Virus record (IMG/VR): IMGVR_UViG_2660238346_000018
Strand: one strand, 5' to 3'
Length of the DNA stretch: 5,381 nucleotides
DNA from: a virus
Taxonomy: Duplodnaviria > Heunggongvirae > Uroviricota > Caudoviricetes
Shown here: in pieces, positions 41-3,461 of the stretch
Layout of the letters: each line of letters opens with the position of its first letter
Numbering within the stretch: position 1 is the first letter of the stretch
Position numbers and translations under genes: made by a program
Notes under the pieces: generated by a model
Seen by the model: only the letters and a program-made list of their open reading frames with translations
What the model was told of the DNA's origin: nothing
Databases searched by the model: none

Positions 41-262
41 TCAGGGAAGTTCAGGATTTAATCGTTTGAAAAGGAAAGTACCATCAGCACCAATATCAAA
101 CTTCACATCAACCCGTCCCTTTATATAATTTGCCGCTGCATAGGCCGGATATTGTGGTAATGCCTTAACCAACTGTCGGGGCATATCTGTTTTATGTTGC
201 GTACAGCCCATAACCAGAGAAGACAACAAAATAATTAACGGAAGATTTCTTTTCATTTTCAT
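41..262 (-). CDS. Short lipoprotein with a TonB C-terminal-like motif, possibly truncated
   Basis: N-terminus MKMKRNLPLIILLSSLVMGC looks like a lipoprotein signal peptide with a VMGC lipobox. The motif QYPAYAAANYIKGRVDVKFDIGADG resembles the start of the TonB C-terminal domain (E. coli TonB QYPARAQALRIEGQVKVKFDV..DG), but the ORF stops about 15 residues later, well short of a full domain. Start could be ATG at 262 or 256; the ORF track used GTG at 271. GGGA lies just upstream. Confidence 0.45.
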   Translation of the reverse strand: MKMKRNLPLIILLSSLVMGCTQHKTDMPRQLVKALPQYPAYAAANYIKGRVDVKFDIGADGTFLFKRLNPELP

Positions 263-276
263 TCCCGGCACAGATA

Positions 277-293: not shown

Positions 294-600
294 AACAATG
301 CCACCCTGTCGGTCATCAATCCTCTGTTTAATGGCAACGACAATTATCCGACTTAAATCACAAATCAGACACATGACATAACAGAGCTTGCGAGGTAACA
401 CATCGTCCGGTTTCTTCCACCATCGCACCGGACCAGCGACCATGAGGGGACAACGCCGCGCTCCGTTAACGCGGTAAACCCCGGTGTGTATCGTTTTTGA
501 TTATCCCCGCACACTCGCGCAGAGGAGTCTCCCGGTCGGGCTGCGGTCTCTGTTAATGCAGGAATACGGCGACAATACCGCGCATGGATAATAAGGTCGC

Positions 601-825
601 TCAACACACTGGCTGTAATGCAGCGGATACCATGTGGCATTTAGCGGCATTCATCGTACACTCCACGGTTAGCTCTTCATTCGTGGCATTCACCTGAAAG
701 GTCCGGGAGTGTAATTGCGTACATTTACCACTGAACGAACCTTCAACAAGAACACGACCACGCTGCAAAATACGGAACGGAATTGTTCCCTGAAAAGGCT
801 TTACGGTTACCAGTAATTTCTTCAT
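601..825 (-). CDS. Hypothetical 74-aa protein downstream of Rz
   Basis: ATG at 825-823 is preceded by GGAGG with 4-nt spacing (minus-strand CCGGAGGATGTATG), 24 nt after the Rz stop. Product MKKLLVTVKPFQG... has no signal peptide or TM segment. No family recognised. Confidence 0.5.
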   Translation of the reverse strand: MKKLLVTVKPFQGTIPFRILQRGRVLVEGSFSGKCTQLHSRTFQVNATNEELTVECTMNAAKCHMVSAALQPVC

Positions 826-848: not shown

Positions 849-1307
849 CTACTTAATGCACTGAGTACGGATATATTCCTGCGCCCCTTCCAGTTGCTTC
901 TGCATCGTCATCAGCCGCTCTCTGAGGGTGAAATAATCCCGTGTAACGGTGTCTGCCAGTCGGGGGCCGGTTGCATTATCCACGCGGGCGGTGCCGGTGG
1001 CTTCACGCACGGGACCTGGACAGGTGGCGTTGATACGCAGGCGCTTACGACCAGCGGCAACGTCAGCGCGAAAAGTTTCATTTTCAGCTCTCGCATCAGC
1101 TAATTCCCTCGAGTATTTTGCATCGAGCGCAGCAACATCGCGCTGGCGCACCTGCATATCAGTAATGGTTGCGTTCGCCAGCTTCAGTTCACTGGCTTTG
1201 TTATCGCGCTGCGCTTTGTAGGTAATCGCGTTATCACGGTAATGGTCTGTTGCCATCCACAGCGCTCCACAGGCCACCAGCAGAATAACGATAAACGCGG
1301 AAAGCAT
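849..1307 (-). CDS. Rz: Rz i-spanin (inner-membrane spanin subunit)
   Basis: Translation closely matches lambda Rz as remembered: [50 protein letters not shown], with an N-terminal TM segment. Start taken as ATG at 1307; the ORF track extends to an in-frame GTG at 1322. Confidence 0.85.
911..1096 (-). CDS. Rz1: Rz1 o-spanin (outer-membrane lipoprotein) nested in the +1 frame of Rz
   Basis: [20 protein letters not shown]...[32 protein letters not shown] is near-collinear with lambda Rz1 (lipobox, proline-rich segment, [26 protein letters not shown]). It lies wholly inside Rz. GAGGGA sits about 8 nt upstream of the ATG. Confidence 0.8.
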
Positions 1308-1318
1308 TCGGTTTATGT

Positions 1319-1450
1319 TCACCCCAGCAGCCCCGACGAAGACAACATCATCCAGGCCATGGAAAGAAAAAGAGCAACCAGCATTAGTGAAAATGAAATG
1401 CCGACAATTACACAGAGGATCTTCGCCAGCGTTATGAGTTTGTCTGACAT
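1319..1450 (-). CDS. Small hydrophobic ORF (43 aa, predicted single TM) immediately upstream of Rz
   Basis: ATG at 1450 is preceded by a strong SD AGGGAGGA with 7-nt spacing. Product [43 protein letters not shown] is almost entirely hydrophobic. Its TGA stop (1321-1319) overlaps the alternative GTG start of Rz. No homolog recognised. Confidence 0.4.
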
Positions 1451-1464
1451 GCTTAATCCTCCCT

Positions 1465-1647
1465 TCACGATTTCAACGCAATGACCAGTTTTGCCAGCCC
1501 ATACAGCATCGGGGACACAGCAACACCGACCGCCACCCACTTAATGGCAAAAGCCAGTGCTCTGCTGATGTCATCAGTTACAGGCGCTTTCAGTTCAAGG
1601 CCGTTTTTCATAGTCAACCTCAACAGAATTCGTTTATACTTTTCCAT
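1465..1647 (-). CDS. Small ORF (60 aa) with a C-terminal hydrophobic segment
   Basis: ATG at 1647 with AGGGAG close upstream (spacing short, about 3 nt). Product [60 protein letters not shown]. It ends 14 nt before the RBS of the 43-aa ORF. No homolog recognised; could be a non-coding leader. Confidence 0.3.
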
Positions 1648-1680
1648 GTTCTCCCTTGCCTTATCCAAGGTCAGAAACAC

Positions 1681-1720
1681 AAAACCCCGCTTGCAGCCAA
1701 CAAACGGGGTTTTTACTTTT
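1681..1720. terminator. Intrinsic-terminator-like hairpin, usable on both strands
   Basis: AAAACCCCG (1681-1689) pairs with CGGGGTTTT (1705-1713) around a 15-nt loop, followed by TTTTTACTTTT on the plus strand. On the minus strand the same stem is followed by TTTTGTGTTT. Lies 84 nt downstream of the endolysin stop. Confidence 0.5.
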
Positions 1721-1803
1721 ATTCACTTAGTTTTTGTCAGTTCGCAGGATTTCGTGTTATCCGCCCGTGTGAGCAAACCGCATTTTTCAGCAAAATATTC
1801 TGC

Positions 1804-2337
1804 TTATCTGTCAATTCCCCAGCACGCCAGCGCACTCTCCTGGTCACGACGGGATACCTGACCGTAACAGTTATTTGAGCGAATACGGCAGTCTCTGCCA
1901 CCGTCCTTAATCCACCAGCGAATCGCCTCGCATGCTCCCCTGCGATCACCAGCATTAATTCGTCTGTAAAACGTCGACGGGAAACACTTACCGGGACCAA
2001 TGTTGTACGGACAGAATGACGCGATCCCCGCTTTCTGGGGTTCGGTCAGCGGCACTCTGATGTTTTTCTCCACCCACGCCAGCGCTTTATCACGCTCAAT
2101 GGCGTTAACCTGGTCGCATTTTTCCTTCGACAACTTCATGCCCGGAACGACAGGTTTGCCATCCACCATGATGGCACCACGGCAGATGGTCCAGATACCT
2201 GCACCATCACGGTATGCCGTTGTGTGGTTACCCTCTTTTTCGTCCAGAAACTGGTCAAGTATCTGAGGAGCAGACGCGCCTGCAGCAATCAGCGCCAGAA
2301 CAGCAGCTGACAGGCCGTATTTGATTTTTGCGTTCAT
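1804..2337 (-). CDS. R: SAR endolysin (T4-lysozyme-like muramidase, glycoside hydrolase family 24)
   Basis: 177 aa. N-terminal Gly/Ala-rich weakly hydrophobic segment YGLSAAVLALIAAGASAPQIL is typical of a signal-anchor-release domain. E..D..T catalytic-triad spacing (EKEGNHTTAYRDGAGIWT) and overall layout resemble phage 21 R. No canonical SD upstream of the ATG (AT-rich ATAAATATCC). Confidence 0.88.
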   Translation of the reverse strand: MNAKIKYGLSAAVLALIAAGASAPQILDQFLDEKEGNHTTAYRDGAGIWTICRGAIMVDGKPVVPGMKLSKEKCDQVNAIERDKALAWVEKNIRVPLTEPQKAGIASFCPYNIGPGKCFPSTFYRRINAGDRRGACEAIRWWIKDGGRDCRIRSNNCYGQVSRRDQESALACWGIDR

Positions 2338-2448: not shown

Positions 2449-2709
2449 ATGGATTATCCAAATCTACCAAAACAAACTTTTGCTGATTTAATCGCACTCA
2501 GGCAAGCAGTCGTAGCTCTAATCAACGTGTTGCCGGATGAGGAAAAGGAATTAGTTAAAGCAATTCTTAACAGAACTGCCGCCGATTTTTCATCATTCCC
2601 ACTGACAGATGACCTTGCGGACCTTCCTGAATTAATTGCAGCGTCCGCCATTAAGCTTACTGAAGAGATTTACTCTCCTCAAAAGCCTTCACAAAATTCC
2701 TGCGAGTAA
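2449..2709 (+). CDS. Hypothetical 86-aa acidic protein, the only plus-strand gene supported in the window
   Basis: ATG at 2449 preceded by GAGGTGA with about 5-nt spacing; TAA stop at 2707-2709 followed 19 nt later by a strong intrinsic terminator. Product MDYPNLPKQTFADLIALRQAVVALINVLPDEEKELVKAILNRTAADFSSFPLTDDLADLPELIAASAIKLTEEIYSPQKPSQNSCE. AT-rich (about 40% GC) relative to flanking lysis genes. No family recognised. Confidence 0.5.
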   Translation: MDYPNLPKQTFADLIALRQAVVALINVLPDEEKELVKAILNRTAADFSSFPLTDDLADLPELIAASAIKLTEEIYSPQKPSQNSCE

Positions 2710-3166
2710 CTTCAATGCAATAATCGTAAAACGCCGCGAACTGCTCATCGCGGCGTTTTTTTGCATCTTCAGAAGGCATCAGCGTCGACAGTTTTTTATT
2801 CAGTTCAACGACGCAATTCTCCAGTTTTTCAATGCGTGATTCGATATCATCTTTTTCTGACAGTATCGTGTTATATGCATTGTTAATTTGTATGGTATAC
2901 CGATCTTCGGAACAAAGGCACTTTTCCTGTGACTGTTCATCCCCTTCACATAACCCGGCAGCAATATCCATGAAAAACTGCTTCGCCTTCTTTTTCGCCT
3001 CAGCTTCGTAAAATTCCAGCGTGGCACCTTCAACACGATCAAGATCAATCACCACATTTGGCAACAACAGTGACGTATACCCACCCGTTTCCAGCGCTAC
3101 AGTAACAGTAATCTTATCCGGGTAATTATTTATCCCTTTAACAACCAGTTCGTATTGTTTATTCAT
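2657..3166 (-). CDS. Hypothetical 169-aa protein inserted between pinholin and endolysin
   Basis: ATG at 3166 lies 4 nt after the pinholin stop, with GGAG about 9 nt upstream. Product MNKQYELVVKGINNYPDKITVTVALETGGYTSLLLPNVVIDLDRVEG... has no signal peptide or TM; the C-terminal half is charged with a coiled-coil-like segment (DDIESRIEKLENCVVELNKKL) and a cysteine cluster CEGDEQSQEKCLC. AT-rich. The CDS reads through the 2728-2762 hairpin (encoding KKRRDEQFAAF) and overlaps the 3' end of the plus-strand gene by 53 nt. Confidence 0.6.
   Translation of the reverse strand: MNKQYELVVKGINNYPDKITVTVALETGGYTSLLLPNVVIDLDRVEGATLEFYEAEAKKKAKQFFMDIAAGLCEGDEQSQEKCLCSEDRYTIQINNAYNTILSEKDDIESRIEKLENCVVELNKKLSTLMPSEDAKKRRDEQFAAFYDYCIEVTRRNFVKAFEESKSLQ
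2728..2762 (+). terminator. Rho-independent terminator for the 86-aa gene, embedded in the convergent 169-aa CDS
   Basis: 9-bp GC-rich stem ACGCCGCGA (2731-2739) / TCGCGGCGT (2748-2756), 8-nt loop, extendable by three A-T pairs, followed by a run of seven T. On the minus strand the same hairpin is followed by TTTTACGATTATT. Confidence 0.7.
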
Positions 3167-3170
3167 CGCC

Positions 3171-3386
3171 TTACTCTCCCCGCGCTGCCTTACGACGGTC
3201 CTCTCTGATTTTGAAATACAGGTTAGTCAGATATGTCAGCAGCCCAAACAGCAGACTCCCCAGCACGCCTATTGCCGCCCACTGAGACGGGGAAACCCTG
3301 TCCAGCAACTGCAGGAACCAGTAGCCCGTTCCCACCGCTGACGTGGTGTATGACACACCTGTTGTGATTTTTTCCATCTGGTACAT
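3171..3386 (-). CDS. S: Class II pinholin (phage 21 S-type) with dual start motif
   Basis: 71 aa [71 protein letters not shown], near-identical in layout to phage 21 S as remembered. Two TM domains, the first Gly/Ala-rich. Met1 and Met4 give the antiholin/holin dual start. GGGAGA SD upstream. Confidence 0.9.
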
Positions 3387-3461
3387 ACCCCGTCTCCCGT
3401 ACTCGGAAGCTCACAACAACAAAAGGGCCACCAGCTCTTTACTGATGACCCTGACTCACCG

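Follow-up and report, generated by a model that had tools for sequence, protein, structure and literature searches.

The 5.4-kb stretch of DNA analysed here (5,381 nucleotides (nt), called the window below; IMG/VR record IMGVR_UViG_2660238346_000018) is the late region of an Escherichia coli lambdoid prophage read on the minus strand. Our subject is the interval at positions 1319-1720, between the endolysin gene (R) and the i-spanin gene Rz. It carries two small open reading frames, ORF1 and ORF2, which are real, ordinary-looking, uncharacterised and widespread accessory late membrane genes with a conserved leader. The hairpin and leader in front of ORF1 travel with ORF1-type genes as one mobile unit. 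As to function, our leading explanation, to which we give an even chance, is that ORF1 and ORF2 are independent late inner-membrane protein genes, encoding accessory lysis factors that lie behind a terminator and a leader masking the Shine-Dalgarno (SD) sequence. An initial annotation, made from the sequence alone, had placed a hairpin and two short ORFs between endolysin and Rz, and every one of these features was recovered at its coordinates on the minus strand. The elements of the interval are as follows.

1681-1713, minus strand: G+C-rich hairpin AAAACCCCG...CGGGGUUUU, 14 pairs, of the intrinsic-terminator type and bidirectional in form
1648-1680, minus strand: leader with the U-tract UUUUGUGUUUCU, a small stem-loop (CCUUG/CAAGG) and the SD AAGGGAGAA
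1465-1647, minus strand: ORF1, 60 amino acids, ATG 1647 to TGA 1465; PHROG 1115; RefSeq WP_021566721.1
1609-1621, minus strand: candidate internal start in ORF1, GAGG 1621-1618 and the Met13 ATG 1611-1609, which would give a 48-amino-acid product
1457-1464, minus strand: SD of ORF2, AGGGAGGA, right after the ORF1 stop and 7 nt before the ATG
1319-1450, minus strand: ORF2, 43 amino acids, ATG 1450 to TGA 1319; PHROG 4906; RefSeq WP_001280932.1

Both ORFs are called by PGAP as hypothetical proteins, and PHROG 1115 and PHROG 4906 are both listed with function unknown. The initial annotation had given the 60-residue product a C-terminal transmembrane (TM) segment and described the 43-residue product as mostly TM with a strong ribosome-binding site, a description matched by coordinates, hydropathy and AlphaFold2 models.

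Homologues of ORF1 occur in E. coli, E. marmotae and Salmonella, with identities down to about 65%. Over codons 13-60 of 24 distinct DNA versions, the ratio of nonsynonymous to synonymous substitution rates (dN/dS) was 0.17 in the ORF1 frame, compared to 0.90 and 7.0 in the other sense frames, and the TM part alone gave 0.14. In one Salmonella pair the proportion of synonymous differences (pS) was 0.56 and that of nonsynonymous differences (pN) 0.06. As judged by these substitution patterns, ORF1 is a genuine gene under purifying selection in its own frame. The AlphaFold2 model contains two helices, a basic amphipathic one at residues 3-14 and a second at 22-59 (mean pLDDT 78). Eight Lys/Arg residues precede the hydrophobic core and just ALKS follows it, which indicates a tail-anchored, N-in inner-membrane protein with one C-terminal transmembrane domain (TMD).

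Met13 of ORF1 is nearly invariant, and GAGG, GAGA or GGAGG is found 6-9 nt upstream of it in all 12 distinct contexts. In each of 11 distinct contexts, the Arg three codons before Met13 is encoded by the rare AGG or AGA; at the other Arg position, CGA or CGG is used where the residue remains Arg. In one lineage (L097), GGAGG occupies the position of the internal SD through different amino acids. Many gene callers begin the protein at Met13, as seen from the 48-amino-acid database entries. The conserved GAGG/AGG before Met13 would be best explained by an internal SD, with a possible second product of 48 residues. By analogy with holin/antiholin pairs, there is a possibility that the 60- and 48-residue forms might have opposing activities.

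For ORF2, dN/dS was 0.43 overall in frame, compared to 0.87 and 1.18 off-frame. When more divergent copies were added, codons 2-26 gave 0.31 in frame and 1.21 and 1.07 in the other frames. The reading frame measures 43 or 44 codons in 108 of 109 loci, and its hydrophobic helix character is kept even between alleles only ~65% identical. The SD is kept in relatives as AGGGAGGA or AGAGGA. AlphaFold2 predicts a single helix from residue 2 to 38 (pLDDT 89.5), corresponding to one TMD preceded by a short N-terminus with two Lys and followed by an uncharged tail. Thus ORF2 too is, on codon-level evidence, a genuine gene under purifying selection in its own frame. By tblastn, it was detected at full length and 65-100% identity in 276 phage records, directly before Rz and mostly unannotated. 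Among them are 933W, phi24B, Min27 and P8983; in these Shiga toxin (Stx) phages it always lies between ant and Rz. Its homologue in E. coli O157:H7 Sakai is XECs191, reported as a translated intergenic ORF in a RIBOseq study, with 30.0 reads per kilobase per million (RPKM) for RNA, a RIBOseq RPKM of 12.6 and a ribosome coverage value of 0.43, and predicted there to be an inner-membrane protein (PMC5597208). XECs191 corresponds to ECs_5722 and ECs_5741 in the current annotation. Beyond the XECs191 listing, a literature search on small ORFs between R and Rz returned no description. The initial annotation had proposed to abandon the two ORFs if relatives shared nucleotide conservation only or if ribosome occupancy was lacking. 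Neither situation applies, since conservation at the protein level is present in both ORFs and ribosomes were seen on the ORF2 homologue.

The initial annotation also had ORF2 ending on the Rz start. Its TGA (1321-1319) does overlap an in-frame GTG (1322-1320) of the Rz frame; the RefSeq start of Rz, on the other hand, is the ATG at 1307, 11 nt downstream, for which the claim does not hold. Either start is possible, because Rz initiated at the GTG would retain an N-terminal Arg (NINR), which in alignments corresponds to that of the MNR start in other alleles. In junction variants GGGGTGA is followed by 7-11 nt and then by an ATG, and these last ORF2 codons, GGGGTGA, are themselves SD-like.

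ORF1 and ORF2 are in different frames, as had been noticed initially, with starts 197 nt apart. The suggestion made from this, that they could be remnants of one larger two-TM gene, was not supported. Each ORF has its own SD and start codon, and each occurs alone: ORF1 before Rz in Salmonella cassettes with an HP1-type holin, ORF2 between an ant-like gene and Rz in 933W, Min27, P8983 and Sakai Sp9/Sp15. ORF2 is also present in E. marmotae and E. coli cassettes in which no Rz-family gene follows it. As a pair in unchanged order, they are found behind GH108 or M15 endolysins with quite different holins. As paralogues or as halves of one gene, the two were rejected by hhalign (probability 5.9%), and when 1.84 billion representative proteins were searched with a profile, the 21 hits were without exception small same-family proteins or fragments, none of them a longer ancestor. 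The different frames, a rare fusion of ORF2-like and ORF1-like parts (P0094, a single contig) and the existence of rearranged arrays would fit decayed remnants of one two-transmembrane gene, or functionless chance ORFs. Frame-specific purifying selection in both ORFs, their separate starts and separate occurrence, and the missing relation between them or to any longer homologue in the searches above speak against such decay, which we consider essentially excluded.

Segment 1300-1810 is 100% identical to E. coli STEC17-183 and 99.8% identical to four PhiR12-series Escherichia phages whose recorded hosts are E. coli K-12 or C; the ORF1/ORF2 module is likewise found in the phages of the PhiR12/PhiR5 records, for which propagation on E. 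coli K-12 or C is stated. At least 80% of this segment was found in 990 of 5426 complete E. coli genomes (roughly 18%). Contig scans with one genome per species, by protein pattern and by DNA pattern, recovered no enterobacterial copy; three DNA-pattern matches in Clostridia-type genomes were dismissed as chance. The R-Rz gap is a swap site, occupied by ant, by peptides of family A, C or D (see below), or by nothing; lambda and the K-12 prophage Qin carry neither ORF1 nor ORF2. The remark that some Stx phages have an antirepressor-like gene at this place proved right for 933W, Min27, P8983 and Sakai Sp6/Sp9/Sp15.

The hairpin at 1713..1681 has the two parts of an intrinsic terminator, a G+C-rich stem-loop and a U-tract (UUUUGUGUUUCU) directly after the stem, and U-tracts are found on both hairpin strands. 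The sense RNA 1725..1640 (86 nt) folds at -31.9 kcal/mol (z = -4.4), with none of 200 shuffles as good, compared to -20.3 kcal/mol (z = -3.0) for the antisense RNA. In the sense fold the partner of the U-tract is a stretch comprising the 3' half of the SD, the spacer and the first two letters (AU) of the ORF1 start codon. The window contains 7 terminator-like sites for 5.1 +/- 2.1 expected by chance. Since this raw count does not exceed expectation, the evidence for the hairpin is its own stability and conservation. Different phages contributed 26 distinct versions, and the fold energy of every one lies between -15 and -21 kcal/mol. Compensatory changes affect 3 of 13 pairs, 97.4% of cells are paired and no shuffle among 500 reached the score, this covariation being scored on a hand-registered alignment of the arms with a bulged U removed from five versions. 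The hand-registered alignment was used because both RNAalifold attempts were flawed: the sense leader gave a spurious helix because the terminator 3' arm was included, and in the antisense alignment the variable inner stem could not be aligned. Owing to G-U wobbles, the sense hairpin is more stable than the antisense in 17 of 22 versions (for instance -10.4 compared to -4.4 kcal/mol in L203). The leader similarly folds better in the sense strand than in its complement in 15 of 19 variants, with pairing of U-tract and SD in most of those folds. No Rfam family matched; the best result was a sub-threshold rimP leader on the plus strand (27.5 bits for a gathering score of 47, E 0.23). Taken together, fold energy and covariation bear out the 'terminator-like hairpin' of the initial annotation as a conserved, stable structure of the terminator type.

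A unit composed of an A-run, the hairpin AAAACCCCG...CGGGGUUUU, c/gUGUUUCUG, a small stem-loop and the SD GGGAGAA was found before every ORF1-family gene. Because the unit precedes ORF1-family genes wherever they are found, the hairpin is assigned, by its genomic distribution, to ORF1 and not to the endolysin. Its surroundings were of three kinds. Lysis cassettes of three unrelated types contain the unit; it follows tail-fibre/tail-assembly genes that already possess a terminator of their own; and a metagenomic phage has it in tandem repeats, placed after the major capsid gene and before a holin/SAR (signal-arrest-release)-endolysin pair. Hairpin and leader thus move together with ORF1-type genes. 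A pattern scan of viral contigs showed that they precede four different peptide families:

Family A: the ORF1 type
Family A': ...AFAIRIVAIAVLVWAIRWW
Family C: xDFSKLIREIR...GQIRWW, present but unannotated in H-19B, TL-2011c and SPN3UB
Family D: xNFSGGDWIVEALKL...

In each of the four, the N-terminal segment is charged and the TMD is C-terminal, and the peptides often end with RWW* on the start of the next gene.

Several relatives of the unit show additional arrangements. The Salmonella, A' and D leaders (L095, L101, L088, L179) contain an 8-codon mini-ORF (e.g. MCREVCSL) ~20-50 nt before the peptide start; in such variants the stop of the leader ORF overlaps the GTG at which the peptide begins (GUGA), and the real (second) SD lies under another hairpin, AGGGA...UCCCU, a layout similar to hok/mok coupling. 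In the metagenomic locus L235 (2420-3685), the major capsid gene is followed by two units of hairpin and small TM ORF, then by a 59-amino-acid holin-like ORF, by D-like and C-like peptides (the latter ending VRWW*) and by a SAR-type lysozyme, so that the peptides lie upstream of the endolysin. Four small TM ORFs stand in a row between R and Rz in L004 (2640-3148; E. coli ST131) and L094 (1403-1751): a C'-type peptide, ORF2, the C-terminal 41 codons of ORF1 and a 28-amino-acid A'-like peptide ending RWW* on the Rz start. The 41-codon part of ORF1 is there entered via a GTG overlapping the ORF2 stop (GGGGTGA), and this arrangement shows shuffling at that junction.

We propose the following scheme, in which each step is conditional. 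The hairpin would act as an intrinsic terminator, so that only late RNA polymerase antiterminated by Q transcribes ORF1, ORF2 and Rz/Rz1. It would thereby insulate membrane-active genes from other upstream transcription, and the pinholin gene of the window has a comparable layout. A terminator-like hairpin of 12 pairs with a U-tract is located at 3452..3424 on the minus strand, ~35 nt upstream of the pinholin start at 3386; as for the hairpin and ORF1, a terminator stands just before a membrane-protein gene. On the read-through messenger RNA (mRNA), the U-tract may fold onto the ORF1 SD and start codon, resulting in low ORF1 translation, and the internal GAGG-ATG may yield the second product of 48 residues. 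ORF2 would be translated from the strong SD directly after the ORF1 stop. As the ORF2 stop overlaps or abuts the Rz start, ORF2 and Rz could be translationally coupled, with termination delivering ribosomes to Rz. Late in infection both peptides would enter the inner membrane, where they would adjust when, or how efficiently, the membrane is permeabilised, endolysin is released or spanins act. This lysis-tuning role is what we infer for ORF1 and ORF2. Because lambda and K-12 Qin do without them, neither is an essential lysis protein.

A number of observations weigh against this scheme. ORF1-family genes also stand beside tail-fibre and capsid genes, which suggests a link to late operons generally. 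Four examples, two from tail contexts and two metagenomic, have a weak U-tract on the sense side. Neither ORF1 nor ORF2 showed similarity to the holin, antiholin, releasin or spanin families. The C-terminal 17 codons of ORF2 are weakly constrained (dN/dS 0.70), and the tail of ORF2 is frameshifted in eight of roughly 108 loci. The ribosome signal in Sakai is low and comes from uninduced cultures, on a sequence present in several prophage copies. Finally, the lysis link of both proteins, termination at the hairpin and sequestration of the SD are predictions from sequence.

A different function would be that of moron-type cargo unrelated to lysis, serving superinfection exclusion, defence or modification of the host membrane and inserted at permissive junctions of the late operon. 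That the families are accessory and patchy, that the R-Rz gap itself is a swap site and that ORF1-family genes occur after tail-fibre/tail-assembly and capsid genes, at junctions known to accept extras, would suit such cargo. Morons have their own promoter and a downstream terminator. Here the order is reversed: the hairpin is upstream, ORF1 runs into ORF2 and Rz, and no promoter for expression in the lysogen was found. PADLOC defence models (E <= 1) gave no match for ORF1, ORF2 or the A' and C peptides, the peptides of L235 are inside a lysis cassette ahead of holin and endolysin, and in hundreds of phages ORF2 is invariably found in tight coupling with the Rz start. We retain cargo unrelated to lysis as a minor but real possibility. 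The same coupling raises the question of whether ORF2 is a mere leader ORF delivering ribosomes to Rz, its peptide being functionless. In all junction variants the ORF2 stop overlaps the Rz start or precedes it by 7-11 nt, the SD-like last codons could serve such a delivery, and the weak constraint on the C-terminal third agrees with it. A functionless peptide is however very unlikely, given that codons 2-26 are constrained in frame (0.31 vs 1.07-1.21), that length is fixed at 43 or 44 codons, that the hydrophobic helix persists between ~65% identical alleles and that no Rz-family gene comes after ORF2 in the E. marmotae and E. coli cassettes mentioned above.

In another explanation, the unit resembles a type I toxin-antitoxin module. 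ORF1 would then be a membrane toxin blocked by a cis-antisense RNA of ~75 nt, transcribed from a promoter inside the first codons of the peptide, crossing the ribosome-binding site and ending at the hairpin as its own terminator; variants with the 8-codon leader ORF would resemble hok/mok/sok. The corresponding site in the window is speculative:

1611-1640, plus strand: antisense promoter-like site TAGTCA-18-TATACT in ORF1 codons 3-13, which with the hairpin would give an RNA of ~1647-1722 across the ORF1 ribosome-binding site

An antisense -10-like hexamer is present at +6..+12 of the ORF in every peptide family (TATACT in A/A', TGcTAAAAT or TGcTAATAT in C, GcTAAAAT in D, TACAAT or TAAACT in distant members), with plausible -35 elements (TAGTCA, TGGACA or TTGTCA) at 18 nt. 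The antisense U-tract has at least 3 U in every context, even where the upstream gene has its own terminator (L097, L104, L236). Tandem arrays, as in many type I loci, and the mini-ORF variants with a hairpin over the second SD also speak for a type I unit, as do the antisense small RNAs AsxR, AgvB and HnrS known in this part of lambdoid prophages (PMC4104026, PMC13502914). Yet the promoter match is 9/12 and the count of such sites in the window is at chance level; moreover the -10-like hexamers fall on a conserved Tyr codon and on early codons whose A/T-richness is common for unrelated reasons. Rfam gave nothing beyond the rimP leader cited above. The Hfq-bound EcOnc10-12 and EcOnc33 that were checked do not lie between endolysin and Rz, and Sakai Sp6/Sp9/Sp15, having ant there, cannot test the module. 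A small hydrophobic peptide of <~60 amino acids with one TM helix is what the size and topology of type I toxins call for, and both are found here, but no separate promoter for a toxin mRNA was found: no sigma-70-like minus-strand site exists between R and ORF1, where the gap from hairpin to start is just 33 nt, and the sense gene depends on late read-through. Because wobble pairs favour folding of hairpin and leader in the sense strand, a sense terminator with an SD-sequestering leader is favoured over an antisense RNA, and we regard the type I explanation as rather unlikely. Also rather improbable is that hairpin and leader form a small-RNA gene setting a threshold above which late transcription has to rise for the membrane peptide to be made, an RNA-based lysis or abortive timer. 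If this was true, four unrelated peptide families would have an RNA timer in common, one that is moved around between the lysis, tail and head junctions of enterobacterial prophages and occurs also in H-19B-type Stx phages.

Two published RNAs were considered for the hairpin region and rejected. HnrS (EcOnc10-12) is located downstream of Rz in Sakai Sp9, equivalent to window positions 436-552 and not 1640-1725, and EcOnc33 lies in the esterase gene instead of between endolysin and Rz. Separately, window segment 436-552 (probably the plus strand, ~474-521) is 96.6% identical to the Sakai Sp9 segment with the Hfq-CRAC peak EcOnc12. This peak corresponds to the 66-nt prophage small RNA HnrS, which represses hha (PMC13502914; PMC4104026 Table S2). 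As judged by this identity, the window probably carries a copy of hnrS downstream of Rz, antisense to the late genes.

The surrounding genes, in order on the minus strand, are a NanS-p-type esterase, DUF1378, DUF826, the hairpin at 3452-3424, an S21-type holin, a DUF1327/YdfR-family gene and the endolysin, which is the upstream neighbour of the 1681-1713 hairpin. After the interval under study come Rz with embedded Rz1, a 74-amino-acid ORF and a small TonB_C-like lipoprotein. The genes of the lysis cassette were assigned as follows.

3171-3386, minus strand: S21-type class II holin (pinholin family), PF04971, E 9e-33
2657-3166, minus strand: DUF1327/YdfR-family gene, 169 amino acids, between holin and endolysin
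1804-2337, minus strand: endolysin of the phage lysozyme type, its N-terminal segment hydrophobic as is typical of SAR endolysins, PF00959, E 3.3e-24
849-1322, minus strand: Rz i-spanin, PF03245, E 1.8e-49, start GTG 1322 or ATG 1307
911-1096, minus strand: Rz1 o-spanin lipoprotein, embedded in Rz, PF06085, E 4.4e-20

The DUF1327/YdfR ORF (2657-3166, minus strand) is a partial pseudogene according to RefSeq in the identical strain. Its 3' end is overlapped over ~50 nt by a convergent, RefSeq-annotated ORF of 86 amino acids on the plus strand (2449-2709, PHROG 2572), and both are uncharacterised residents of the lysis cassette. Downstream of Rz, the 74-amino-acid ORF at 601-825 (minus strand) matches the middle of PHROG 2571 and is possibly a truncated gene. 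At 41-271 (minus strand), a lipoprotein-like ORF of 76 amino acids with a weak TonB_C match, on the same strand as the late genes, takes the place where lambda and 933W have bor on the opposite strand.

Part of this was already known: databases list the ORFs as hypothetical proteins, and translation has been flagged for one homologue. The novelty lies in recognising that terminator, anti-SD leader and mini membrane ORF form a mobile unit, that four peptide families are found in it, and that ORF2 constantly accompanies Rz in Stx phages. The lysis cassette of Stx and related prophages sets the burst time, hence the amount of phage and Shiga toxin released, and this cassette routinely holds extra, selected genes for tiny membrane proteins that are unannotated in most phage records, as ORF2 is in 933W. 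If they do tune lysis, the genes would represent accessory lysis factors of a new class and offer a way to influence toxin release; should the leader encode an antisense RNA instead, they would constitute a new phage family of type I toxin-like modules.

We finally compared the unit with known systems. Pfam, NCBIfam (E <= 1) and PDB sequence searches returned nothing for ORF1 or ORF2. Each ORF has one hydrophobic segment, modelled by AlphaFold2 as one long helix, in contrast to class II holins with their two TMDs, of which the first can leave the membrane. Just 2-14 residues extend beyond the TMD and a lipobox is absent, unlike in spanins, for which separate Rz/Rz1 genes are present. Homology of the ORF1 TMD with TMD2 of the S21 pinholin was rejected (hhalign probability 1.9% over 16 columns; no holin in the profile search of 1.84 billion proteins). 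The idea arose from the chimeric protein P0120 and the W-x3-G-x3-S spacing, and is kept merely as a short resemblance. P0120 itself, from a 554-bp ENA contig, is a predicted protein made of the N-terminal half of the S21 holin and the C-terminal helix of ORF1, fused at the motif they share, W-[AV]-A-[IV]-G, and is probably an assembly or recombination chimera.

Lambdoid morons (bor, lom, stx) resemble the unit as small exchanged modules of accessory genes at late-operon junctions, flanked by a terminator-type hairpin; they normally have their own promoter, a downstream terminator and expression in the lysogen, whereas in the present unit the hairpin precedes the genes, a promoter was not found and translation is chained to Rz. 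The Mu gp25 releasin (DUF2730) is also a membrane-tethered, mostly cytoplasmic small accessory lysis protein near a SAR endolysin (PMC9239132). It differs by its 99 amino acids, its N-terminal TMD (N-out, C-in) and its acidic cytoplasmic domain (PMC9239132), compared to the 60 residues, C-terminal TMD, opposite topology and basic cytoplasmic segment of ORF1, which has no Pfam hit to this family and also accompanies non-SAR GH108 and M15 endolysins. As for regulation, the hydrophobic single-helix peptides of 30-60 residues in type I systems (hok/mok/sok, symE/symR, ldr/rdl, ibs/sib) recall ORF1, as do an SD sequestered in mRNA structure (predicted here), a coupled overlapping leader ORF in some variants, tandem arrays, and a terminator-type hairpin over the 5' leader where an antisense RNA could end. 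In contrast to them, ORF1 is part of a phage late operon dependent on antitermination, has folds that favour the sense strand and shows no sequence relation to known toxin families. In the temperate phage P22, the small antisense sar RNA crosses the ribosome-binding site of ant and ends at a bidirectional-looking terminator. The parallel with the ORF1 unit is one of analogy and not of homology, the target here being a membrane peptide and not an antirepressor, although an ant-like gene fills the same R-Rz gap in many Stx phages.

The holin/antiholin systems (phage 21 S68/S71, lambda S105/S107) are, as ORF1 and ORF2, very small inner-membrane proteins of a late lysis cassette. They have RNA structure at the translation start and dual starts, as may be the case for ORF1 (M1/M13 with an internal SD). 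A terminator-type hairpin is found just upstream of ORF1, as for S in the window, and the W-x3-G-x3-S of ORF1 resembles TMD2 of S21. They differ from ORF1 and ORF2, which have no detectable homology to them, contain one TMD, C-terminal in ORF1, instead of two or three, and share their cassette with a bona fide pinholin; the ORF1 family moreover extends outside lysis cassettes. Taken together, these comparisons suggest by analogy that the unit is most like the small holin/antiholin-type proteins of lysis cassettes, with a regulation that resembles that of type I toxins.

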